Source of the DNA: a virus
Strand: one strand, 5' to 3'
Length of the DNA stretch: 44,951 nucleotides
Virus genome (UHGV): UHGV-0212259
Under the pieces are notes generated by a model. It searched no databases. It had not been told where the DNA came from and saw only the letters and a list, made by a program, of their open reading frames with translations. Shown here one piece after another: positions 16,519 through 28,761 of this stretch (position 1 is its first letter; the number at the start of each line of letters is the position of its first letter). The position numbers and the translations under genes are program-made.

Positions 16519-16689
16519 ATGACACAGAATGAAGTAGCTGAGCGTATCGGGGTTACTCGCCGCACGCTGAATAACTGGTTAAGGAGCGGGAAGTTCCCGG
16601 ATTGTTGTATCCGCATTATGGGTCGCCGCCAGCCTGGTACGTTCGACCCGGAGAAAGTGGAAGCGTGGATTAAGGAGAACGTGAAATGA
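16519..16689 (+). CDS. Small HTH DNA-binding protein
   Basis: 56 aa from ATG 16519 with GAGGG SD; segment VAERIGVTRRTLNNWLRSGKFP is a classic helix-turn-helix. Confidence 0.5.
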   Translation: MTQNEVAERIGVTRRTLNNWLRSGKFPDCCIRIMGRRQPGTFDPEKVEAWIKENVK

Positions 16690-16919
16690 CCGAGTTCCAG
16701 TCACGTGTATTCACGGCGGTCGTTTCATTAACACGTAAAAAAGGGTCGTGCAGCGTTATCGACTTGCGCCGTAGTTATTTTAAGTACTATAGTTCAGCCA
16801 TTATTGAAGGGTCGTTAAAGGCGCTGGTTAAATATGGTGTCGTGAAAAACGTTGGCGGGAAATATAGTGCCGTTGCTGAAGTTCGCGGAATGGCGGCCAC
16901 TTTAGAAGACCTGGAATAA
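16686..16919 (+). CDS. Hypothetical protein (C-terminal ...LEDLE tail)
   Basis: 77 aa ORF translationally coupled to the upstream HTH gene. Confidence 0.4.
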   Translation: MTEFQSRVFTAVVSLTRKKGSCSVIDLRRSYFKYYSSAIIEGSLKALVKYGVVKNVGGKYSAVAEVRGMAATLEDLE

Positions 16920-16977
16920 AAGAAAGCCCCGACGCGGTGAACGCCGAGGCTAAATTACTTGCTGAAGGAAATACAAC

Positions 16978-19218
16978 ATGTCCGATGTAATTTTATCCTA
17001 CTCGTGGTCTCGTCGCAACGCGCGGGCAGAGAAAAAGGATATAAACGTCAGAACTACACACACGGCAACACTGGACGACCTGAAAGAGTTAATCCAGCCG
17101 CTCGATGCTGTTCGTGATGGGATTAACCCGAAGACCGCGCCCGGTTATATCACTGCCGCGTGTGACTCGACGCACAGCACCGTAAAAGACCCGGAAACAG
17201 GAGACTTTAAGCAGGCGCGTAAAGGCTTTTTCTATCGCTGCGACGCGTCTGTAAGCAAATCGTCGCTGGCGTATCTGGACTTCGACAACGCAACGCCGGA
17301 AGAGTATCAGGAAGCGGTGCGCCTGGTTAAGCGCAGCCGCCGGGCTATGTGTCTCTATACCACGGCATCACATACCGATGAGTCCCCGCGCTTTCGCGTC
17401 GTCATGCCGCTGGGCCACCCTGTTGAAGGCGGCGACATCATCCGCGTTCGCCATGGATTGTTGGAACACTTCTTCAAAGGTATGGGCGCCGACCGCAGCG
17501 GTTTTACCCTGTCCCAGCCGATGTACCTGCCGCCAGTTGGCTCTACCGTTATCTGGTCGCGTCGCAACGACCTGATTGACCCGGACGAGTTACTGGAAGG
17601 CATCCCCGCCGTTGACGTTAGCAGCGCATCTGACTACCAGATACCGGAAGAACTACGCACTGCGTTTACCGACGCGTTTGAAGCCCTGGCGTTCGAGTAC
17701 GGTGGCATCATGACGCCGCGCGGACTAAAAATGCCAGCTACACCGGAACACGCAGAGAACTACAGCGACCCGACGCCGCGCTCGGACGACTTCCTGCTGT
17801 GTTTCCCGCGCGAGGGGTATGAAGCGCCGAACGTAACCATGATTCACGACACTGACATCTCGGCGACAGAAGGCATGTCACCGAAAGAGGTGTGGCAGTA
17901 CGCGTGTTACGCTACCGGGCTGCCATTCAGTGAAGTTGCAGAGGCCATCGGCTGGGGCGCCCGTGAGTCCGTTTCATGCAGCCTCGACGACCTGGAAGAC
18001 GATGAGGACTCAGAGGAGGACGAGTTACCGGAACCGGTAACGGCTGATTTCGTCGTCGAAGGGTACATGCCGTCAGATTGCATATGGGGTATCGTCGGGG
18101 AATCTGGAACGTACAAATCGTTTTATACACTGGGGATGATGTACCTTAGCGCCGCGGGATACCGGTTTGCGGGGGCGGATACCCAGCGTTGTCACCATTT
18201 CTATATCGACGGTGAGGGCGGTGCTGCTACACGTACACGTATCGACGCACTCGCGGCTAAATATGGCGTGGAAGGTAAAGATTATGTACATGTTATTGAC
18301 ATGGGCGAAGTCGGCAAACTGAAAAGCCTGATTAAGCTAATGCGCGAAACTGCTGGCGACGAGCCAATTGGGATGGTCGCGTTCGACACCCTCAACCAGA
18401 CGCTGGCCCTGACGATTGATAAGTTTGACGAGAACAGTTCATCAACGGCAATCGGCATGGGTAAAGTTATCGCCATCCTGAAAGAAGTACGCGACGCGAC
18501 TAAAGCCGCGGTAGGTGTTGTCCATCATACGCCGAAGGGGGGAAAGAAAGCCCGTGGCAGCGGGGCACTGTATGCAGGTGTCGACGTGGAACTGACAATC
18601 GAACGTGCAACCGACCGTCAAATAAATGTATACCACTCTAAATTTAAGCACGGGCCTCAACAGAAAACTGTCGGTATGGTTCTGGAGTCCGTACAGTTCC
18701 GTGAAGCCCCGCCGCCGAAAGAATACCGTGCTGTTGAGTTCCTGGGTAGCACCGAGGAATATGGCACAATCGTAAACCTCGACCTGCCTGAGCCTCACAA
18801 GGCGCTTGTGCTGATGCCGTGGGGCTTCGAACCGTTCAAAACTGACGAGGAGAAAGAGCGGGAAGAAGGCATAACAAAGGAAGGTAAAGAAAACGTAAAG
18901 AATGCCGTAAAACGTGGGAAGGATGGAGGACGTAAGGAATCCATACTCGCCGCGCTGGAAGACCTGCAACAGTCTGACGACACCGGACGAGGTTTTACCC
19001 AACGGCAGATAGTAGCGAACTCGGGCGACCACGCCATCACCAACCACCATCTCGAGAAGATGCTGAAAGACGGGGAGTTGATGCTCGGGTGCGATGTTAA
19101 CGGTGAAGTTATGCCAGGCACATACCGGATACCGGAAAAGATGGGTGACAGATTAAGACCGAAGACAATATACGAACCAAATGAAATGCTGGTGGTTACA
19201 GAGGAGGATTTGGAATAG
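16978..19218 (+). CDS. Primase-polymerase (AEP-type) fused to RecA/DnaB-like helicase
   Basis: 746 aa; N-terminal AEP-like motifs (LAYLDFDN, TASHTDESPRFRV); central Walker A GESGTYKSF and VVHHTPKGG; acidic linker; C-terminal TEEDLE. Confidence 0.7.
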   Translation: MSDVILSYSWSRRNARAEKKDINVRTTHTATLDDLKELIQPLDAVRDGINPKTAPGYITAACDSTHSTVKDPETGDFKQARKGFFYRCDASVSKSSLAYLDFDNATPEEYQEAVRLVKRSRRAMCLYTTASHTDESPRFRVVMPLGHPVEGGDIIRVRHGLLEHFFKGMGADRSGFTLSQPMYLPPVGSTVIWSRRNDLIDPDELLEGIPAVDVSSASDYQIPEELRTAFTDAFEALAFEYGGIMTPRGLKMPATPEHAENYSDPTPRSDDFLLCFPREGYEAPNVTMIHDTDISATEGMSPKEVWQYACYATGLPFSEVAEAIGWGARESVSCSLDDLEDDEDSEEDELPEPVTADFVVEGYMPSDCIWGIVGESGTYKSFYTLGMMYLSAAGYRFAGADTQRCHHFYIDGEGGAATRTRIDALAAKYGVEGKDYVHVIDMGEVGKLKSLIKLMRETAGDEPIGMVAFDTLNQTLALTIDKFDENSSSTAIGMGKVIAILKEVRDATKAAVGVVHHTPKGGKKARGSGALYAGVDVELTIERATDRQINVYHSKFKHGPQQKTVGMVLESVQFREAPPPKEYRAVEFLGSTEEYGTIVNLDLPEPHKALVLMPWGFEPFKTDEEKEREEGITKEGKENVKNAVKRGKDGGRKESILAALEDLQQSDDTGRGFTQRQIVANSGDHAITNHHLEKMLKDGELMLGCDVNGEVMPGTYRIPEKMGDRLRPKTIYEPNEMLVVTEEDLE

Positions 19219-19220
19219 GT

Positions 19221-19250
19221 AAAAAGAAAGGGGCGTTAAGCCCCTTCACC
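19221..19250. terminator. Hairpin terminator shared by converging primase-helicase and repressor genes
   Basis: AAGGGGC-gttaa-GCCCCTT at 19228..19246 with A-run upstream (U-run on minus strand). Confidence 0.5.
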
Positions 19251-19451
19251 GAACGCCAGCCACTTGGCGTCTACTTGCAGCACTTCCGCCAGTTTAAACA
19301 GCGTTGCCGGGCGGACGTCCTGAGTTACCCCGAGTGCGAGCTGGTTAATCGCACCCTGGGAAACGCCGGCCAGGACAGCCAGACGGCGCTGTGAGATGCC
19401 GAGTTCTTTACGGCGTTGTTCTACACGAATGCCTAGTTCAGATGGTTGCAT
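19236..19451 (-). CDS. XRE/Cro-type HTH transcriptional regulator
   Basis: 71 aa; LGISQRRLAVLAGVSQGAINQLALG is a canonical XRE helix-turn-helix; encoded divergently from the operator-bearing promoters at 19472..19544. Confidence 0.7.
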   Translation of the reverse strand: MQPSELGIRVEQRRKELGISQRRLAVLAGVSQGAINQLALGVTQDVRPATLFKLAEVLQVDAKWLAFGEGA

Positions 19452-19740: not shown

Positions 19741-20202
19741 ATGTTAGAGAAATTCTTAGTATTACTGGAACGTTTCGTAGTTGCACACGAAATTATTGCA
19801 GCGAACAGCGCGAAACAAGTTGTCGTTGCGGAAACTGCAACAATCGAGCCTACTGTTGCACCAAAAGAAATCCCGGTAGAAGGTGAAGACATCGTCGACA
19901 CTCAACCGGCAGAAGAAGAGAAGCCGAAACGCAAGCAGCGTAAAGCTAAAGTAGAGGAACCAACGCCAGAACCGGAAGAAGTGAAAGAAGAAGTCGATTA
20001 CCAGTCTCTTCGTGACCAGATTCAGGCTATCGACGATGCAATTAACGAAGGTCCGAGCGATGCCGCGTGCGATGATTCCGATGAACTGCTGGAAGAGTTT
20101 ACCGGTAAGAAGATGAAGATTGCTGCGATTAAAGACGAAGACCTGGCTGAATACCTGGAGCGCCTGACGGCAATCAAGAACAAGTATTTCGAAGAAGAAT
20201 AA
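19741..20202 (+). CDS. Highly acidic protein with a short basic patch
   Basis: 153 aa; long D/E-rich stretches (EEEKP...EEPTPEPEEVKEEVD...DDSDELLEEF) and KPKRKQRKAK patch. Confidence 0.45.
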   Translation: MLEKFLVLLERFVVAHEIIAANSAKQVVVAETATIEPTVAPKEIPVEGEDIVDTQPAEEEKPKRKQRKAKVEEPTPEPEEVKEEVDYQSLRDQIQAIDDAINEGPSDAACDDSDELLEEFTGKKMKIAAIKDEDLAEYLERLTAIKNKYFEEE

Positions 20203-20245: not shown

Positions 20246-20518
20246 ATGATTTACCAACTCTATCGCGCCGTAGACAGGCGGGATAACACAGAGGCGCTAT
20301 GGCTATTGCGTGCGCCGTCCGGTGCGCACCAGATGGAAGAGATGGCGTACTTAGGCAAAGTACCGCGGCCTAAAGATATAGGCCGTCACGTGTCGCAGAT
20401 TAAGCGTACGACTTTCGCCAAGCCAGACTTTTATGTCTTCGAGTCGATGTATGGGTGGGCTATGCACTGCGAACATAAGACTCGGCATTTAATTGACCAG
20501 TGGGAGACAAGGGTATGA
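20246..20518 (+). CDS. Hypothetical protein
   Basis: 90 aa ORF with GAGGG SD. Confidence 0.4.
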   Translation: MIYQLYRAVDRRDNTEALWLLRAPSGAHQMEEMAYLGKVPRPKDIGRHVSQIKRTTFAKPDFYVFESMYGWAMHCEHKTRHLIDQWETRV

Positions 20519-21756
20519 TTTTAAAGGAACGCGGCGGCAATAACGATGTACACGCCTTACTGTCACCGTCGGGTGCTAAGAAGTGGCTAAGCTGCGCGGC
20601 ATCACTGGCCTGTGAAAAAGATATTCCTAACACGTCCGGTAAAGCCGCGGTATTAGGAACAGCTATGCACACCATAGCAGAGATGCACCTTAACCAGTAC
20701 ATCAAAGGCACTGCGTTGCCGTTAGAACGCGAGGTCGGTGCTTACGTGCTGGACGAGGGTAAAGGCCAGATTAAGGCGCTAATCAGTCCGATGAAAGGCG
20801 TGGTACTGATTACGGCGGACATGATTGAGCAGGTGCGCAAGTACACCGACTACTGCAAAGCGATTATCGACGTAGCGACTTACGCCAAGCTGGAAATGCG
20901 CGTCAATCTTACTGAAGTATTGCATCCGGGGTATGAAGGCGTTGAGACGTTCGGAACCGCTGACCTTGTTGCCGTTCAGGAACTGGCTAACACCGACGAG
21001 CGCATGCTAATCATCGGCGACCTGAAAACAGGACGGCATCGTGTCGAAGCGAAAGAAAACAAACAGCTTATGCTATACGCTCTCGGTGTTTATCGCCGCC
21101 TCAAGAGACGATATAACATCACAGTTGTTCGTCTGGTAATCTTCCAGCCGTACGCTGGTGGCGCGTCCGAGTGGGACATCTCGGTCGAAGGTCTGGAACT
21201 GTTTGCTAAGTTCGCACAGAAACGCGCGCTGTTAGCCCTTGATGCTTATTTCCGCGGCAAGAAGAACCTGAAAGCGTCGGACTTCAAACCATCGGTCGAT
21301 GGCTGTCAGTGGTGTCGGTTCTCTGAACAATGTGCCGCGCGTACAAAGACGGTTAATTCTGTACTGGCGGAAGAACTGGAGGACGACTTTGCGCTGGAAC
21401 TTACTCCGGAGCAACTCATCGCTGAGTATGAGAAGTTGCCGTTGTTGCGCCAGCACATCGACAAGGTCGAGAAAGCTATGGCCGCCGCGTTGCATTCTGG
21501 CAAGAAAGTACCGGGGTACAAGCTGGTTGAGGGTCGGCCGGGTAATCGCGCGTGGAAAGACGCAGAGAAAGTGGCCGAGAAATACGGCGGCAAGCTGACC
21601 AAAGAAGTGCTCATGACGCCGACCGAAGCGGTTAAAGTAATACCGGAAGAAGAACTGAAAGACTTCATTACCCGTAAACCAGGCGCGCCATGCGTCGCAA
21701 CGGCGGACGACAAACGTCCTGAGTGGAATCAGGTAACAGAGGAGGATTTGGAATGA
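20515..21756 (+). CDS. PD-(D/E)XK nuclease, Cas4/RecB-like (resembles DUF2800-type phage exonuclease)
   Basis: About 413 aa from ATG 20515; GTADLV...IIGDLKTGRH nuclease core; Cys cluster CQWCRFSEQC; C-terminal TEEDLE. Confidence 0.6.
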   Translation: MILKERGGNNDVHALLSPSGAKKWLSCAASLACEKDIPNTSGKAAVLGTAMHTIAEMHLNQYIKGTALPLEREVGAYVLDEGKGQIKALISPMKGVVLITADMIEQVRKYTDYCKAIIDVATYAKLEMRVNLTEVLHPGYEGVETFGTADLVAVQELANTDERMLIIGDLKTGRHRVEAKENKQLMLYALGVYRRLKRRYNITVVRLVIFQPYAGGASEWDISVEGLELFAKFAQKRALLALDAYFRGKKNLKASDFKPSVDGCQWCRFSEQCAARTKTVNSVLAEELEDDFALELTPEQLIAEYEKLPLLRQHIDKVEKAMAAALHSGKKVPGYKLVEGRPGNRAWKDAEKVAEKYGGKLTKEVLMTPTEAVKVIPEEELKDFITRKPGAPCVATADDKRPEWNQVTEEDLE

Positions 21757-22004
21757 TTCGTAAAATGTTCAGAGTAATTGGCGGTTTTGTGGCGTGTATT
21801 ATTTTCTGGGTTCTTATGTCGCCGCTAATGATACCAACATTTATCATAGCGTGCCTTACGATATGCCTAATGCGAACACGCGACATCGAAGCCATCCTGA
21901 ATGACAAATCGTGGAAGACACAGGCGTTACGTTTCATAAACAACATGAAATGGCCAAACAAGTATATTGAGATAGTTGAGAAAATAACTGGCTGGAAGGG
22001 TTGA
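21753..22004 (+). CDS. Small membrane protein (2 TM)
   Basis: 83 aa from ATG 21753 (ATGA overlap with upstream stop; GAGGAGGA SD); hydrophobic segments VIGGFVACIIFWVLM and IPTFIIACLTICLM. Confidence 0.45.
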   Translation: MIRKMFRVIGGFVACIIFWVLMSPLMIPTFIIACLTICLMRTRDIEAILNDKSWKTQALRFINNMKWPNKYIEIVEKITGWKG

Positions 22005-22087: not shown

Positions 22088-22714
22088 ATGGGACTGAAAT
22101 TAAATCTGCGTAAAGTAAACACTGCATGGGTTAACGTATTTGAACGCGAAAAAGACCGTGAAAACGATGATGGCTCAATCACCAAAGGCCAGTACAGTGC
22201 AACCATTATCCTGCCGTCGGACCATGCTCAAATCGATGCGCTCTACGATACCGTTTACGCTGTAGTCGAAGAAGCATTAGGCGCAGCCGCCACAGAGAAA
22301 TGGATGAAGTCCAACTACGGCGAAGGTAAGCACATGGATAAATGCGCGATTAAAGATATTGCAGAGCGCGACAATCCGTTTGAAGACTTCCCGGAAGGCT
22401 TCTACTTCAAAGCGAAGGCGCAGAAACAGCCGCTTATTGTAACCTCTAAAAAAGGCGAGACTCAGGTAGAGCAGGACTTCAATGTAGACGGCGAACAGAT
22501 TGAAGGTGAACAGGTTTACAGCGGCTGCGTTGCTAATGTAAGCGTTGAAATCTGGTTCAGCCAGAAATATAAAGTTCTCGGCGTTAACCTGCTGGCGATT
22601 AAATACGTCGGCGAAGGTAAAGCGTTCGGCGGTTCTAAAGTCGCTGCAAGCGTCGATGACCTGGAAGATGATGAAGAAGATGAAGCACCGCGCCGCGAAC
22701 GTCGTCGCCGCTAA
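22088..22714 (+). CDS. ssDNA-binding protein-like (resembles DUF2815-type phage SSB)
   Basis: 208 aa; acidic C-terminal tail DDLEDDEEDEAPRRERRRR; sits between Cas4-like nuclease and DNA polymerase. Confidence 0.5.
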   Translation: MGLKLNLRKVNTAWVNVFEREKDRENDDGSITKGQYSATIILPSDHAQIDALYDTVYAVVEEALGAAATEKWMKSNYGEGKHMDKCAIKDIAERDNPFEDFPEGFYFKAKAQKQPLIVTSKKGETQVEQDFNVDGEQIEGEQVYSGCVANVSVEIWFSQKYKVLGVNLLAIKYVGEGKAFGGSKVAASVDDLEDDEEDEAPRRERRRR

Positions 22715-22732: not shown

Positions 22733-22757
22733 TAAGGCCCTTCATTGGGCCTTTTTA
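22733..22757 (+). terminator. Rho-independent terminator after SSB-like gene
   Basis: Hairpin AAGGCCC-ttcattg-GGCCTT followed by TTTTT. Confidence 0.55.
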
Positions 22758-22768
22758 CCGGAGTCAGA

Positions 22769-23242
22769 ATGGAACATATAAAAGATTTTCTAAGCTACGA
22801 CCGAGAGACAGGGGTATTCACGTGGGTACAGCCTACTTACCGTCGAGGGCGACCGGGAGACATCGCGGGGTGCATCAATAGTAGTGGATACTGGCGAATT
22901 CCGTACATGGGTCGATATTACATGGCGCACAGGCTAGCGTGGTTTTTCGAGTATGGTGAATGGCCCGAAGGCCCTCTTGACCATATAAACCGTGACAGGT
23001 TAGACAATAGGATTTCTAACCTAAGGAAAGCAACAACCGCTGATAATGTGCGAAACGCTAAAAATAAGGGAGCTAGAACAGGAGTTAAGGGAGTAGTTAA
23101 AAACGGCAACCGATTTTACGGGCGTGTGCATTTTAACTACAAAAGCTATAACGCCGGTAGCTACGGAACTCTTGAAGAAGCAGAAAGCGCTGTAAAGAAA
23201 TTAAGAGAAAAACTGCACAAGGAATTTTATTGCCATGACTAG
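22769..23242 (+). CDS. HNH homing endonuclease with AP2-like domain (copy 1)
   Basis: HRLAW...DHINRDRLDNRISNLR HNH core; paralogous to 26331..26828; free-standing, overlaps DNA polymerase start. Confidence 0.65.
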   Translation: MEHIKDFLSYDRETGVFTWVQPTYRRGRPGDIAGCINSSGYWRIPYMGRYYMAHRLAWFFEYGEWPEGPLDHINRDRLDNRISNLRKATTADNVRNAKNKGARTGVKGVVKNGNRFYGRVHFNYKSYNAGSYGTLEEAESAVKKLREKLHKEFYCHD

Positions 23243-25433
23243 TTTATTATACCTGGATACCGAGACGTTCTCTGGAGCGGACTTAAAGAAAGTCGGGTCG
23301 TATGCGTACGCGGAGCACCCAACGACAGAGGTTATAATTTGCACATATGCCGTTGATGATGGTCCTGTAGAAGTATGGGATTGCACTTCCGAACCAGTAA
23401 TGCCAATAAGCCTACGTGTTGCGCTCCGTAATGTTATGCGCGGACGTATGAAAATCGTGGGCCATAACTTTTTAATGTTCGACAGGCTCATCATGAAACA
23501 CTGCTGGGGCTTTGATATTCCGGTTAGCAACACCATCGATACGATGATTTGGGCGTTCCGCCACGCGTTGCCGGGTTCACTTGATGCGTTGTGCGAAGTG
23601 CTGGGCGTGTCTGCAGACAACGCGAAAGACAAACGCGGCAAGGCGCTGATTAAGCGTTTCTCTAAACCTACGCCGAAGAACTATAAAATCCGCCGTTACA
23701 CCGCAGAAACACATCCTGACGAGTGGGCGCTGTTCATCAAGTACGCCGTGAGCGACATCACCGCGATGCGTGAAGTCTTTCATAAGCTGCCGCGTTGGGG
23801 TAACTCCGAGTTCGAGGACCGTGTACTGGAACTTGACCAGTTAATCAATGACCGTGGGTTTAAGGTTGACGTTGCACTGGCGGAAGCCGCGATTGAAGCC
23901 GTGGAGAAGCACAAGGCACAGTTACAGGAAGAAGCCCAACGCAAATACGGCGGCTCGCTTACCGGTAAAGACTTTCTGCCGATTCTGCGTGAACTCGCCC
24001 CCGCGCACCGCATCCACAACGCGCAGAAGTCAACGCTTCATGACCTGCTGGCGGACGATGATTTACCTGACGACGCCCGCACGATTATCGAAATGCGCCT
24101 CGGGGCCGCGTCCACCGCATCAACGAAATATAACCCGCTGCTGTTAGGCCGCTCGTCGGACGACCGCCGTCGCGGTTGTTTACAGTATGGCGGGGCAAAA
24201 CGTACTCTGCGATGGGCGGGTAAAGGCTTCCAGCCGCAGAATCTCGCACGCGGGTACTATCACGATGATGAACTGGATAAAGGCATTTCAGCGTTACTTA
24301 AGGGCCGAGCGCATCGCCGTTTCGATGTGGCAAAACTGACGGCATCTACTGTGCGTAGCTGCATCATACCGGAAGAAGGGCATAAGTTTGTTGTTGCTGA
24401 CTACTCTAACGTTGAAGGTCGCGGGCTTGCGTGGCTGGCTGGGGAGGAAACCGCGCTTGATACGTTCCGCGCCGGGTTGGATATTTACTGTGTAACCGCG
24501 GGTAAGATGTTTGGCATGGACCCAGATGATATTAAGAAAAACTTCAAGGAAATCAGACAGATAGGCAAGGCTTGCGAGCTTGGCCTCGGCTATGAGGGGG
24601 GCGTCGGAGCGTTCGTTACGTTTGCTAAAAACTTAGGTCTTGACCTTATTGAGATGGCAAAAACAATGGACGGTACATTCCCGGACCACATATGGGCCGC
24701 TACCGCACGCGGGTACGAGTGGGCACGTATCCAGGAAGCAAAGCGGCCACCGCATCCAGGTGAAAAGGACGACAGACCATCGTATATCCTTGATAAGAAA
24801 GTGTGGCGTACCTGTGATGCTATCAAGCGCATGTGGCGCGAGTCACACCCGGAAACAGTAGCGTTCTGGCGCGACCTTAAAGACGGAATTTTAGCCGCTG
24901 TGCGCAATCCTGGTCGTGAATTTTGGGCGGGAGCACACTTGCGCAGGAATGGGGAAAGGGCTATCCGCATATGGCGTACTGTAGAATTTGATTCATCCGG
25001 CAGGAAGGTTCCTGGTTGGTGGTTATGCATGGAGTTGCCGTCGGGTCGCATCCTCTCGTATCCGGGAATCGGCGTTAGTGTGACAAAGGAAACAGACGAA
25101 GACGGACGGGTAAACACGAATGTGCGAATCAAGTATCAAGGCGAAAACCAGTTAACCCGCCAATGGACCACCCTGTACACACACGGCGGCAAGGCCTGCG
25201 AAAACATTGTTCAGGCGCTGTGCCGTGATTTACTTGCGTATGCGATGATTAACGTTGAGCTCGGCGGGTATCCTATCGTACTTTCGGTACACGATGAACT
25301 GGTATGTGAAACTCCAGATACGCCGGGTTACACGGTACATGATCTGGAAAAATTAATGTGCGCGTTGCCTGAGTGGGCAGAAGGCTTCCCTCTTGTGGCG
25401 GAAGGTGCGGAGATGAAGCGTTATGCTAAGTAA
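23235..25433 (+). CDS. DNA polymerase, family A, with 3'-5' exonuclease domain
   Basis: 732 aa; Exo I LYLDTETFS, Exo II VGHNFLMFD, Exo III YAVSDI; polymerase motif A VADYSNVEGRGLAW, motif B RQIGKACELGLGYEGG, motif C VHDELV. Confidence 0.9.
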   Translation: MTSLLYLDTETFSGADLKKVGSYAYAEHPTTEVIICTYAVDDGPVEVWDCTSEPVMPISLRVALRNVMRGRMKIVGHNFLMFDRLIMKHCWGFDIPVSNTIDTMIWAFRHALPGSLDALCEVLGVSADNAKDKRGKALIKRFSKPTPKNYKIRRYTAETHPDEWALFIKYAVSDITAMREVFHKLPRWGNSEFEDRVLELDQLINDRGFKVDVALAEAAIEAVEKHKAQLQEEAQRKYGGSLTGKDFLPILRELAPAHRIHNAQKSTLHDLLADDDLPDDARTIIEMRLGAASTASTKYNPLLLGRSSDDRRRGCLQYGGAKRTLRWAGKGFQPQNLARGYYHDDELDKGISALLKGRAHRRFDVAKLTASTVRSCIIPEEGHKFVVADYSNVEGRGLAWLAGEETALDTFRAGLDIYCVTAGKMFGMDPDDIKKNFKEIRQIGKACELGLGYEGGVGAFVTFAKNLGLDLIEMAKTMDGTFPDHIWAATARGYEWARIQEAKRPPHPGEKDDRPSYILDKKVWRTCDAIKRMWRESHPETVAFWRDLKDGILAAVRNPGREFWAGAHLRRNGERAIRIWRTVEFDSSGRKVPGWWLCMELPSGRILSYPGIGVSVTKETDEDGRVNTNVRIKYQGENQLTRQWTTLYTHGGKACENIVQALCRDLLAYAMINVELGGYPIVLSVHDELVCETPDTPGYTVHDLEKLMCALPEWAEGFPLVAEGAEMKRYAK

Positions 25434-26142: not shown

Positions 26143-26334
26143 ATGAAACACGAATATGACCGCAAACCAGCACGTGACATCGTACCTGGCGACATGATTT
26201 TCAACGTTAAGACCCGCCAGCCTGTTGCCGTTGATACGGTGTACGTCGAGTCGAACGGTAAACTGGTTATCGAAGACGTAACCGGTAACGTTACGGCGTT
26301 CGGGCGTAAAGAGTTAGTTCTGGTGGCGAAATGA
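26143..26334 (+). CDS. Hypothetical protein
   Basis: 63 aa ORF with AAGGAA SD. Confidence 0.4.
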   Translation: MKHEYDRKPARDIVPGDMIFNVKTRQPVAVDTVYVESNGKLVIEDVTGNVTAFGRKELVLVAK

Positions 26335-26828
26335 ACAAATTAACAAGAAGGCCTGATATTGAGGAGGCGAAACGTCTTCTTAACTATGACCCCGAAACAG
26401 GTATATTTACACGAAAAGTAAGCATTAAAGGGAGAAATGCGGGGGAGGTAGCCGGAGGGCCAAACGACAAAGGATACATAGTTATTACAGTCTCCGGTGT
26501 AAGAATAAAAGCCCACCATCTGGCATGGGCTTTCGTCTACGGAGAATATCATAACGGTGAGCTTGACCATAAAGACCGTAACAGGGCTAATAACGCCATA
26601 AATAATATAAGGCCAGCAGCCAGGAGCCAGCAGATTCAGAACCGAGACTGCTCATCACATAACACTAGCGGCGCGATAGGGGTTTACCAAATATCCTCTG
26701 GCAGGTGGCGCGCCAGAATAGGCGTCAATAACAAATACATCCACCTTGGCTATTTTGATACTATAGAAGAAGCGTCGCGCGTATACCAAAGAGCCGCGGA
26801 AATATACTTCGGGGAGTTCAAGGCATGA
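26331..26828 (+). CDS. HNH homing endonuclease with AP2-like domain (copy 2)
   Basis: YDPETGIFT...HHLAW...DHKDRNRANNAINNIR; paralog of 22769..23242; inserted between VRR-NUC region and SNF2 helicase. Confidence 0.65.
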   Translation: MNKLTRRPDIEEAKRLLNYDPETGIFTRKVSIKGRNAGEVAGGPNDKGYIVITVSGVRIKAHHLAWAFVYGEYHNGELDHKDRNRANNAINNIRPAARSQQIQNRDCSSHNTSGAIGVYQISSGRWRARIGVNNKYIHLGYFDTIEEASRVYQRAAEIYFGEFKA

Positions 26829-28249
26829 GTAAGTTTAGGCGCAGGGAATATCAGAAAATAATGACGTCGTTTATGCTACAGCACCCACGTTGCAATATCT
26901 GGTGCGGTATGGGCGGCGGCAAGACCTCGTCGACGATGTGGGTTCTCAATCGACTGTTCCGCAATGGCCAACTTAATGACGACGACCGAGTGTTAATCCT
27001 TGCCCCATTGCGAGTTGCATCTGGCACGTGGCCCGCAGAACAAACTAAGTGGGGTTTCCCGTGTCTTCGTGTCGTCGATGCAACTGGTTCGGAGAAGCGC
27101 CGCATCGCGGCGCTGGAGTCAGACGCTAACGTGGTGTGCACGAACTACGAAGTTATCGAGTGGCTCATTGACTACTACGGCAAAGACGACTGGCCTTTTA
27201 CGGTTATCGTCGCCGATGAAAGCACGAAGCTGAAATCGTTCCGCAGCCGTTCTGGCGGGAGCAAGCGGGCAAAGGCGCTCAGTAAAGTGGCGTTCGGCAA
27301 GGTTAAGCGGTTCATTAACCTGACAGGCACACCATCGCCAAATGGCCTCAAGGACTTGTGGGGGCAGAACTGGTTTATCGACGCTGGCGAGCGCCTCGGT
27401 TCTTCGTACACGGCATTCACCGACCGCTGGTTCAACTCGGTACAGAAAGGGAAATCCGCGATGGCGCGTGAGTATCATGCACGCCCCGGCGCAGATAATG
27501 AGATTCACCAGAAGATGAAAGACATCAGCCTTACGATTGACGCCGCTGAGTGGTTCGGATGTGAAGCGCCGATTATTGTACCGGTTGAAATAGACCTGCC
27601 GAAGAAGGCGCGTCAGGCGTACATCGATATGGAGGAGAAATTATTCGCGGAACTGGAGAGCGGAGAAGTCGAAGCGGCTAACGCTGCAGCTAAGACGTCG
27701 AAGTGCCTACAGATTGCATCCGGCGCTGTATATGTATCGGGGCCAGACGGAGAAGCAACGAAAGACTGGGAGAAAGTGCACGACACGAAACTGGATGCGC
27801 TGGAGTCCATCGTTGAGGAGTTACAGGGCGCTCCGTTACTGGTGGCTTATCAGTTCAAGCACGAACTGGAGCGCATCCTTAAGCGATTCCCTCAGGCGCA
27901 GGCGTTTGCCAAAGGTGCTAAGGGTAATAAGCAGATGGAAGCGTGGAACCGAGGTGAAATCGAAATCTTGTGCGTACACCCTGCGTCAGCCGGTCATGGT
28001 TTGAATTTACAGGACGGCGGTCACCATCTGGCGTTTATTTCACAAGGTTGGAACCTTGAGCACTATTTGCAGGTGGTTGAGCGTATAGGCCCTGTCCGCC
28101 AGAAGCAGGCAGGGCACGAGCGCCCGGTGTTCCTCTACCACATCGTTGCTAAAGACACTCTTGACGAGGTTGTCGCCGCTCGTACAGACGAGAAAAGGTC
28201 TGTGCAGGACGAACTACTTAATTATATGAAGAGAAGGAGTAAGAAATGA
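26825..28249 (+). CDS. SNF2/DEAD-like superfamily II helicase
   Basis: 474 aa; motif II VIVADESTKLKS; C-terminal helicase motifs (GHGLNLQ, QVVERIGPVRQ). Confidence 0.75.
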   Translation: MSKFRRREYQKIMTSFMLQHPRCNIWCGMGGGKTSSTMWVLNRLFRNGQLNDDDRVLILAPLRVASGTWPAEQTKWGFPCLRVVDATGSEKRRIAALESDANVVCTNYEVIEWLIDYYGKDDWPFTVIVADESTKLKSFRSRSGGSKRAKALSKVAFGKVKRFINLTGTPSPNGLKDLWGQNWFIDAGERLGSSYTAFTDRWFNSVQKGKSAMAREYHARPGADNEIHQKMKDISLTIDAAEWFGCEAPIIVPVEIDLPKKARQAYIDMEEKLFAELESGEVEAANAAAKTSKCLQIASGAVYVSGPDGEATKDWEKVHDTKLDALESIVEELQGAPLLVAYQFKHELERILKRFPQAQAFAKGAKGNKQMEAWNRGEIEILCVHPASAGHGLNLQDGGHHLAFISQGWNLEHYLQVVERIGPVRQKQAGHERPVFLYHIVAKDTLDEVVAARTDEKRSVQDELLNYMKRRSKK

Positions 28250-28761
28250 TGGATTGCGAGGAGTTACTACTTAAGGCGCATCTGCTGTCACGGGGTTTTG
28301 ACGCGGACTGTTTACGTGTGGTCTTAGGCTCTGGAGTAGCTACGTTTTACCTGTGGGGGTTTGATGGTAGGCTTCGCGGATACCAGCACTACAAACCACA
28401 TGCGGAAAAGAACTGTAAAAACCCTAAAGACGCGAGGTACTTTACCAGAACAACAAGGCCGTGTTTATGGGGGCTTGAGTATTTGCCGGATAGCGGGGTG
28501 GTATTTGTTACCGAAAGCATATTCAAAGCCGTAGCCTTGATGAATTGCGGGTTCAACGCCGTAAGCGCACTGGGGTCGAATATACCAGCCGACTTACGGC
28601 AGCAAATGTCACTTTTGCCGTATGAATGGGTGTGCGCCGGTGACAATGATAAAGCGGGCTTAAAGTTCAGCAAAACATTCACCAGAGGATTTGTATCTAA
28701 CGACCTCGATGAACTTTGTGAGGAAGAAATAACGTATCTTGCGAGGAAATTTACCAGATGA
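28246..28761 (+). CDS. Toprim-like domain protein (putative)
   Basis: 171 aa; acidic motifs VFVTESIFKA and CAGDNDKAG spaced as in Toprim folds; weak. Confidence 0.35.
   Translation: MMDCEELLLKAHLLSRGFDADCLRVVLGSGVATFYLWGFDGRLRGYQHYKPHAEKNCKNPKDARYFTRTTRPCLWGLEYLPDSGVVFVTESIFKAVALMNCGFNAVSALGSNIPADLRQQMSLLPYEWVCAGDNDKAGLKFSKTFTRGFVSNDLDELCEEEITYLARKFTR

Follow-up and report, generated by a model that had tools for sequence, protein, structure and literature searches.

The C-terminal tip of the SSBs of bacteria (proteins that bind single-stranded DNA), …DDDIPF, is an interaction hub, and in the acidic tails of phage T7 replication proteins a C-terminal phenylalanine is essential. In T7, the helicase-primase gp4 and the SSB gp2.5 each have an acidic C-terminal tail that binds to basic patches of the DNA polymerase gp5 (PMC12593628, PMC12339929), and removal of the gp4 tail lowers processivity (PMC12593628). 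Proteins of the DUF2815 family are T7 gp2.5-type SSBs with an unstructured acidic interaction tail (PMC5686142), and duf2800-gp2.5-polA is a recognised phage module that combines a PD-(D/E)XK nuclease, a gp2.5-like SSB/annealase and PolA (PMC8093625). Here we describe a short acidic motif in the replication proteins of the virus genome UHGV-0212259, a stretch of 44,951 nucleotides that was analysed as a whole (the window) and in which an earlier note, made from the sequence alone, had pointed to an identical 19-nt element at the 3' ends of two replication genes. The window is a Kagunavirus-like siphophage whose best match is Escherichia phage M01 (94.7% identity across the replication region), and it contains the duf2800-gp2.5-polA module (Pfam PF10926, PF10991, and PF00476). 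We suggest, at a probability of roughly 0.6 and on the strength of comparisons among related phages, that the motif serves as a common docking tag of the phage replication proteins.

The locus resembles T7 in that a single phage has a similar short acidic motif on both its helicase-primase and its gp2.5-type SSB and a family-A DNA polymerase is present in the module, and the presumed role is likewise the tethering of replisome parts to one hub. It differs from T7 in several respects: an invariant leucine at position -2 to -4, followed by 0-3 residues, gives ends such as D-L-E, D-L-S, and D-L-K-D in place of a terminal phenylalanine; a Cas4-like nuclease and a small protein with a winged helix are further carriers of the motif; internal copies occur in the helicase-primase linker and in the SSB, which itself ends in an arginine run; and the polymerase is distantly related to the solved family-A enzymes. 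With the tip of bacterial SSBs the motif shares an acidic stretch and a hydrophobic anchor on a disordered tail, a common pocket type, but the sequences are unrelated and a free C-terminal phenylalanine is not required here because internal copies exist. In addition, the bacterial system has one tail and many partners, whereas here there are many carriers and presumably one partner. We take the motif to be unlike both the clamp-binding consensus and the consensus of the bacterial SSB C-terminus. The literature that we found on the duf2800-gp2.5-polA module describes no tail motif common to nuclease, SSB, and helicase-primase, and no description of the motif was found in the literature searched, the coverage of which was incomplete and is no proof of novelty.

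A short motif in four replication proteins

An exact search of the window returned the 19-mer ACAGAGGAGGATTTGGAAT exactly twice, both times on the + strand (19198-19216 and 21736-21754), in agreement with the earlier note. No extra copy was found in the window at up to three mismatches, and the element was absent from 100 dinucleotide-preserving shuffles, the chance expectation being none. Identity between the two copies extends four bases further 5' with one mismatch (GGT-N-ACAGAGGAGGATTTGGAAT). The helicase-primase gene (16978-19218, + strand) encodes a 746-aa protein assigned to phrog_3228 with a Pfam AAA_25 domain; the first copy spans the six final codons of this gene along with one base of its stop codon, the first, and thereby specifies the C-terminal T-E-E-D-L-E of the protein (19198..19215). 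The second covers the equivalent stretch and specifies the same six residues (21736..21753, + strand) at the end of a 413-aa DUF2800/PD-(D/E)XK Cas4-like nuclease (20515-21756, + strand; phrog_69 exonuclease), where it also holds the Shine-Dalgarno (SD) sequence of the next gene; this nuclease matches PF10926 with 233 bits and PF12705 with 40.2 bits, both above the curated cut-offs of 21 and 22 bits. The helicase-primase ends ...VVTEEDLE and the nuclease ...QVTEEDLE, which bears out the earlier statement that both finish in VTEEDLE. The same note had named a third protein ending in ATLEDLE, and this too proved correct: the 77-aa winged-helix protein encoded at 16686-16919 (+ strand; phrog_5169, fold predicted with AlphaFold2) carries the tail A-T-L-E-D-L-E at 16896..16916, written in other codons (ACT TTA GAA GAC CTG GAA).

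Two more copies of the motif had been overlooked. One, S-L-D-D-L-E at 17980..17997 (+ strand; CSLDDLEDDE), lies in the acidic linker of the helicase-primase between its N-terminal (primase) part and AAA_25, and the other, S-V-D-D-L-E at 22649..22666 (ASVDDLEDDE), is internal to the gp2.5-type SSB (DUF2815/Enc34_ssDNA-bd; 22088-22714, + strand), where it starts the acidic tail. The motif-bearing peptides of the carriers read …EPNEMLVVTEEDLE, …RPEWNQVTEEDLE, …RGMAATLEDLE, …AASVDDLEDDEE, and …CSLDDLEDDED.

The repeat encodes a short linear motif (SLiM), (A/V)-(S/T)-x-(D/E)-D-L followed by 0-3 residues. We searched all six-frame open reading frames (ORFs) of at least 30 aa in the window with the pattern [ST].[DEG]DL and detected six sites, all of them in four replication proteins: the three C-termini, the helicase-primase linker, the start of the SSB acidic tail, and a site near the N-terminus of the helicase-primase. 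The stricter pattern [ST].[DE]DL returned the same six, five of which are in tails or linkers. Composition-preserving shuffles of the four carriers contained 0.13 sites on average and none of 20,000 reached six; with this result and the empty shuffles for the 19-mer, we reject a chance origin of the repeat and the motif. The N-terminal site of the helicase-primase, ATLDDLKE (residues 30-37), matches the pattern but was not counted as a copy; it falls outside the columns conserved at 90% or more, and in the structural model, the confidence of which is very low at this site, a short helix covers it.

Specificity extended to related phages, which we sampled as 110 loci from viral contigs with 21,091 ORFs. 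The C-terminal form of the motif was detected among these ORFs in 89 helicase-primases, 96 nucleases, 22 homologues of the 77-aa protein, and 14 copies of a 62-aa ORF, and in nothing else. This 62-aa ORF belongs to the Klebsiella 37P2-like clade (L050 9392-9581, also L051-L056), ends in …TATDEDLE, and is located directly 5' of the polymerase gene, the start codon of which it overlaps (GGAATGA); it has no BLAST-detectable similarity to proteins of the window. Its position before the polymerase resembles that of the 77-aa tail-bearing protein before the helicase-primase.

The earlier note had named conservation of the tail in homologues as a check, and we found that the tail is kept. A tail of the (E/D/G)DLE type is present in 118 of 120 helicase-primase homologues (60-96% identity), and nearly all of 120 close nuclease homologues end in [TSA]EEDLE. 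In all lineages found among the 110 loci, both proteins retain x-(S/T/A)-(D/E)-x-D-L followed by 0-3 residues, down to identities of ~26% for the helicase-primase and 44% for the nuclease. The respective tails of helicase-primase and nuclease are TTEGDLE and VTEDDLEA in Jerseyvirus, EDDDLSD and ADADLSD in Cornellvirus-like phages, ATDDDLKD and ATDEDLSNE in Dhillonvirus, TNSDLED and KDDDLVD in Edwardsiella phage eiAU, and ASDEDLNS and ASDEDLS in Klebsiella 37P2-like phages. Because distant helicase-primases are otherwise ~26-33% identical, with a stretch just 5' of the tail that is variable in length and content, the motif forms an island of conservation; in Dhillonvirus, the tail motif is present although BLAST aligns the helicase-primase only up to 56 residues from the end. 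As a conserved island within the 3-8 residues typical of SLiMs, set in divergent sequence and recurring in proteins that appear unrelated, the motif has, by these alignments, the properties of that class.

The internal copies are conserved as well. In the linker, D338 and L339 are invariant across 22 helicase-primase homologues (59-89% identity), and an equivalent, C[TQ]DEDL[MDE]D.P, is found in distant clades. The SSB copy is conserved as FGG.G..A[TS]D.DL[DGSE]DD in most clades that have an SSB homologue, with ANDDDLDD, lacking Ser/Thr, in the Klebsiella 37P2-like phages, and some clades have a second, internal copy of the motif in the nuclease.

Acidic-hydrophobic tails are typical of DUF2800 nucleases. 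Among 146 DUF2800 representatives (50%-identity clusters), 104 (71%) carry a net charge of at most -3 over their final 12 residues, compared to 3% of background ORFs, and D-L occurs in the last six residues of 32%, compared to 2% of background ORFs. This dipeptide is in the last six residues of 17 of the 18 closest representatives, and more distant ones have tails of the D-F-x-(D/E)-L type. A 758-aa DUF2800 protein (P0253) was considered as a possible fusion that might reveal a partner and was set aside, its N-terminal extension containing no Pfam domain; for two more distant representatives (P0245 and P0255) the available contigs did not reach far enough to give genome context, and a scan of viral contigs with P0255 gave no match. 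The tails of helicase-primase and nuclease also co-vary: with one pair taken per clade (11 clades), tail pairs from the same genome share 21 identities in the four positions before D-L, more than when clades are re-paired at random (permutation p≈0.012), and in the same clades co-variation of extension length and of extension sequence was not significant. Such lineage-wise co-variation may be read as modest support for a constraint shared by the two tails.

Structure predictions suggest that the motif copies sit in low-confidence and probably disordered tails and linkers. In the nuclease, 413 residues long, the Pfam DUF2800 match stops at residue 402, so the tail is outside the folded domain. 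The AlphaFold2 model of the 77-aa protein has a winged helix at residues 1-64 (predicted local distance difference test, pLDDT, >90) and a low-confidence tail at 65-77 (pLDDT <50), and a fold search with this protein yielded at most weak, generic winged-helix matches (best E=3.5e-3). In the helicase-primase (model mean pLDDT 53), pLDDT is <50 for the linker (330-380) and for the tail (730-746), and a winged-helix-like domain at ~650-729 (pLDDT near 80) precedes the tail. Homology between this domain and the 77-aa protein was rejected (hhalign probability 0.6%), and the two are alike in architecture only, as a winged helix plus a tail. A short acidic C-terminal segment beyond the folded domains, as in T7-type tails, is found in the nuclease, in the 77-aa protein, and, judged from a weak model, in the helicase-primase.

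The end of the SSB has a layout of its own (22649-22714), in which the D-L motif is followed by an acidic run and then by a basic end, …EEDEAPRRERRRR, with no acidic/aromatic tip as is usual in T7-type SSBs. In SSB relatives (L050 8577-9345, L077 11330-12092, and others), this end expands to several alternating acidic and Arg/Lys-rich blocks.

Ribosome binding and mosaicism at the gene ends

The two copies of the repeat differ in what follows them. At the second, AGGAGG (21740-21745) is located 7 nt before an ATG at 21753 that overlaps the nuclease stop codon (21754-21756) as ATGA, so that the copy does act as the SD sequence of the overlapping gene, as had been proposed; this gene encodes an 83-aa membrane protein (21753..22004, + strand). 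The arrangement is like other ATGA stop-start couplings in that the SD lies within the upstream gene, and differs in that the SD codons are conserved residues of the motif. At the first copy, no + strand gene follows in the window. The TAG stop of the helicase-primase gene is directly followed by a GC-rich hairpin (19227..19247) with an A-run before it on the + strand, which reads as a terminator for a - strand Cro-like gene (19236-19451), and in many relatives the same hairpin is present after the helicase-primase tail. An SD placed 5-10 nt before a start codon that overlaps the stop, the pattern looked for as a sign of translational coupling, is found at copy 2 and not at copy 1. The 77-aa gene has no overlapping gene downstream, and its codons are the genome-preferred GAC CTG. 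The segments at 16920-16951 and 19219-19247 are alike, each consisting of a stop codon, AAAGAAAG, and a GC-rich hairpin with a T-run on the - strand; both hairpins read as leftward terminators, with an obvious - strand gene (19236-19451) at the second only.

Under the codon usage of the window, identical codons for TEEDLE at both gene ends have a probability of 0.0037, so the choice of codons is not random. In the nuclease genes of relatives, GAGGAGG is present in 19 of 21 cases with an overlapping downstream gene, compared to 0 of 17 without one (Fisher p=1e-8). For the helicase-primase the corresponding figures, 12 of 16 with an overlapping gene compared to 13 of 29 with a stop and hairpin, amount to a trend (p=0.07). 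One nuclease allele, GTA ACA GAG GAG GAT TTR GAA TGA, is always followed by an ATGA-overlapping gene, of which there are at least four different ones, and another, GTT AGT GAA GAA GAT TTG GAA TAA, has a promoter-like TTGACA…TATTAT after it and lacks an overlapping gene. ATGA coupling also occurs in relatives after the helicase-primase tail (16 loci, with overlapping genes of 36-191 codons) and after the 62-aa protein that precedes the polymerase gene. Homologues of the membrane protein keep their position after the nuclease, with the same ATGA arrangement in the Klebsiella-phage clade.

The codons are explained by their service to coupling, with GAG GAG as the SD, GAT TTG as an A/T-rich spacer, and GAA TGA as the start, and the sequence is doubly constrained as a peptide motif and an SD. 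At copy 1, these codons are most simply a retained ancestral state of coupling. The earlier suggestion of a translational coupling element can be upheld for copy 2 and for the choice of codons; it does not apply to copy 1 in the window and does not account for the conservation of the peptide. The element is a clear case of such double constraint and counsels caution in the reading of nucleotide repeats at gene ends.

The end of the helicase-primase gene is also a site of mosaicism. Within one genus, helicase-primase alleles range from 97% down to ~27% identity, and the neighbouring nuclease is at least 90% identical. At six loci (L010, L012, L017, L028, L030, and L031), the helicase-primase is 27-31% identical to that of the window and the last ~19 codons are near-identical in DNA, with the shared end PKTIYEPNEML.VTEEDLE. 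Because identity drops sharply ~60 nt before the stop, the tail-coding end is a mosaic boundary, which in the window corresponds to the segment encoding PKTIYEPNEMLVVTEEDLE and the stop codon (19159..19218, + strand). Such a boundary would be expected if the tail has to fit the rest of the resident replisome, or if alleles are exchanged through the homology that the conserved segment offers.

A candidate docking tag and its rivals

The earlier note had offered three readings of the element, as a shared acidic docking tail, a translational coupling element, or a recombination footprint, and the comparative evidence, with tails conserved where their flanks are not, favors the docking tail as the best supported of the three. 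As a docking tag, the motif would allow the helicase-primase (through linker and C-terminus), the nuclease, the SSB, and the winged-helix protein to bind one receptor surface of the replisome, and this binding would be interchangeable and multivalent. Our leading guess for the receptor, by analogy with T7, is the family-A DNA polymerase (PolA, 23235-25433), which we favor because this enzyme, central to replication, lacks the motif; a second candidate is the groove in which the SSB binds DNA. The exact DNA identity of the two copies would then be a by-product of acidic codons that also form an SD, a spacer, and an ATGA start.

Several points weigh against a docking function. The motif pattern was defined after inspection of the data, though the counts are extreme, and co-variation of the tails rests on 11 partly related clades and is significant only for the residues before D-L. 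The low overall confidence of the helicase-primase model means that disorder is weakly supported in that protein. An aromatic residue at the C-terminus, as in T7, is missing, and the end of the SSB is formed by a basic run and not by the motif. Furthermore, no counterpart of the T7 gp5 basic patches was located on the polymerase: the PDB sequences that matched it did so over short segments of Taq, Bst, and Klenow-type enzymes, with T7 gp5 absent from the 60 matches listed.

The competing explanations fall on the side of either the nucleotide sequence or the protein. If the element were purely a ribosome-binding or coupling signal, the shared peptide would be an accident of purine-rich SD codons, which would fit the AGGAGG before the overlapping ATG at copy 2, the strong association of GAGGAGG with ATGA-overlapping genes, and the coupled genes that relatives also have after the helicase-primase tail. 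However, SEEDLE is kept in the GAA GAA allele, which has no SD and is followed by TAA and a promoter-like site; the peptide is also kept in the terminator variant without any downstream gene, as in the window, other codons specify it in the 77-aa protein, and the linker and SSB copies precede no start codon. Since the peptide is kept with or without an SD, this explanation fails; as a complete account it is largely refuted, and we give it almost no credence. The SD-less SEEDLE allele and the GAC CTG codons of the 77-aa protein instead suggest selection at the protein level. We also regard it as very unlikely that the copies are a recombination footprint, whether a cassette that was recently duplicated or gene-converted or repeats at either side of a mobile 2.5-kb segment. 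The codons do resemble each other more than would be predicted from genome-wide usage, a sharp breakpoint is present at the last ~60 nt of the helicase-primase gene, and the genes downstream of both tails vary among relatives, but the same 18 nt are present in both tails at only 3 of 45 related loci that have both genes (3 of 15 if only loci with identical six residues are counted). Moreover, the two tails differ by synonymous changes in the Dhillonvirus and Klebsiella-phage clades, each is an ancient part of its own gene family, and no downstream gene is common to the two sites. DNA identity irrespective of coding constraint, which would mark a mobile-element or gene-conversion repeat, was not observed, and there is no sign of exchange between the sites; the footprint reading is therefore not supported, and we reject gene conversion or a duplicated cassette as the general cause of the identity.

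The main rival at the protein level is autoinhibition in cis, in which each tail would mimic DNA and fold back onto the DNA-binding surface of its own protein, tuning affinity or ssDNA/dsDNA specificity with no common partner. All of the motif carriers are predicted DNA-binding proteins, and there are precedents: the acidic tail of the DUF2815 protein Enc34 ORF6 lies in the groove of a neighboring molecule and its removal allows dsDNA binding, and in T7 gp2.5 a single surface is contested by the tail and ssDNA (PMC5686142). Charge mimicry, though, predicts neither an invariant Asp-Leu with a preferred Ser/Thr across four unrelated folds nor the co-variation of helicase-primase and nuclease tails by lineage, and we consider it unlikely as a sole explanation. 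In T7 the cis and trans roles coexist, so that mimicry may be an addition to docking more than an alternative, and here too it could coexist with docking. The tail could also be read by a host factor, such as a recruited replication protein, a protease, or a chaperone, given that all clades found infect Enterobacterales and that the tails of bacterial SSBs are a well-known case of one acidic-hydrophobic peptide addressing many host proteins. We find this improbable: tails differ between phages that share E. coli as host (TEEDLE in Kagunavirus compared to TDDDLKD and TDEDLSNE in Dhillonvirus), and the two tails drift together within a lineage, so a receptor encoded by the phage would fit better.

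If the docking tag holds, it would provide a simple, testable wiring diagram for a biochemically unstudied replisome that is widespread in phages of E. coli, Salmonella, and Klebsiella, a group with many candidates for phage therapy. The T7 principle of acidic tails and a polymerase hub would also be extended, to a recombination nuclease and a small protein that binds DNA on the one hand and to internal motif copies on the other, and the tag would suggest why very different helicase-primase alleles are exchanged without breaking the machine. More tentatively, a "D-L box" code might organise the whole replication-recombination machine in Guernseyvirinae, Dhillonvirus, eiAU-like, and Klebsiella 37P2-like phages, with the tail as a compatibility adaptor that makes helicase-primase alleles of ~27-31% identity swappable while recombination keeps the local tail-coding 3' end; we raise this as a speculative possibility.

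Neighboring genes of the replication region

We detected several other features around the motif carriers. A 153-aa protein encoded at 19741-20202 (phrog_3127) is very acidic, with a net charge of -20, and has K-D-E-D-L-A near its C-terminus, which is motif-like without the Ser/Thr. The membrane protein coupled to the nuclease is very variable save for its C-terminal …WP.(K/E)Y..IVEKITGWKG (L023, L024, L031, L033, L035, and L050), and its gene sits within the replication module. Farther downstream are a second helicase (26825-28249) and a primase-like protein (28246-28761). HNH endonuclease genes are located at both sides of the polymerase region, at 22745-23242 and 26331-26828, the first of which terminates within the start of the polymerase gene (overlap 23235-23242), and in some relatives the polymerase is annotated as split or intein-containing.

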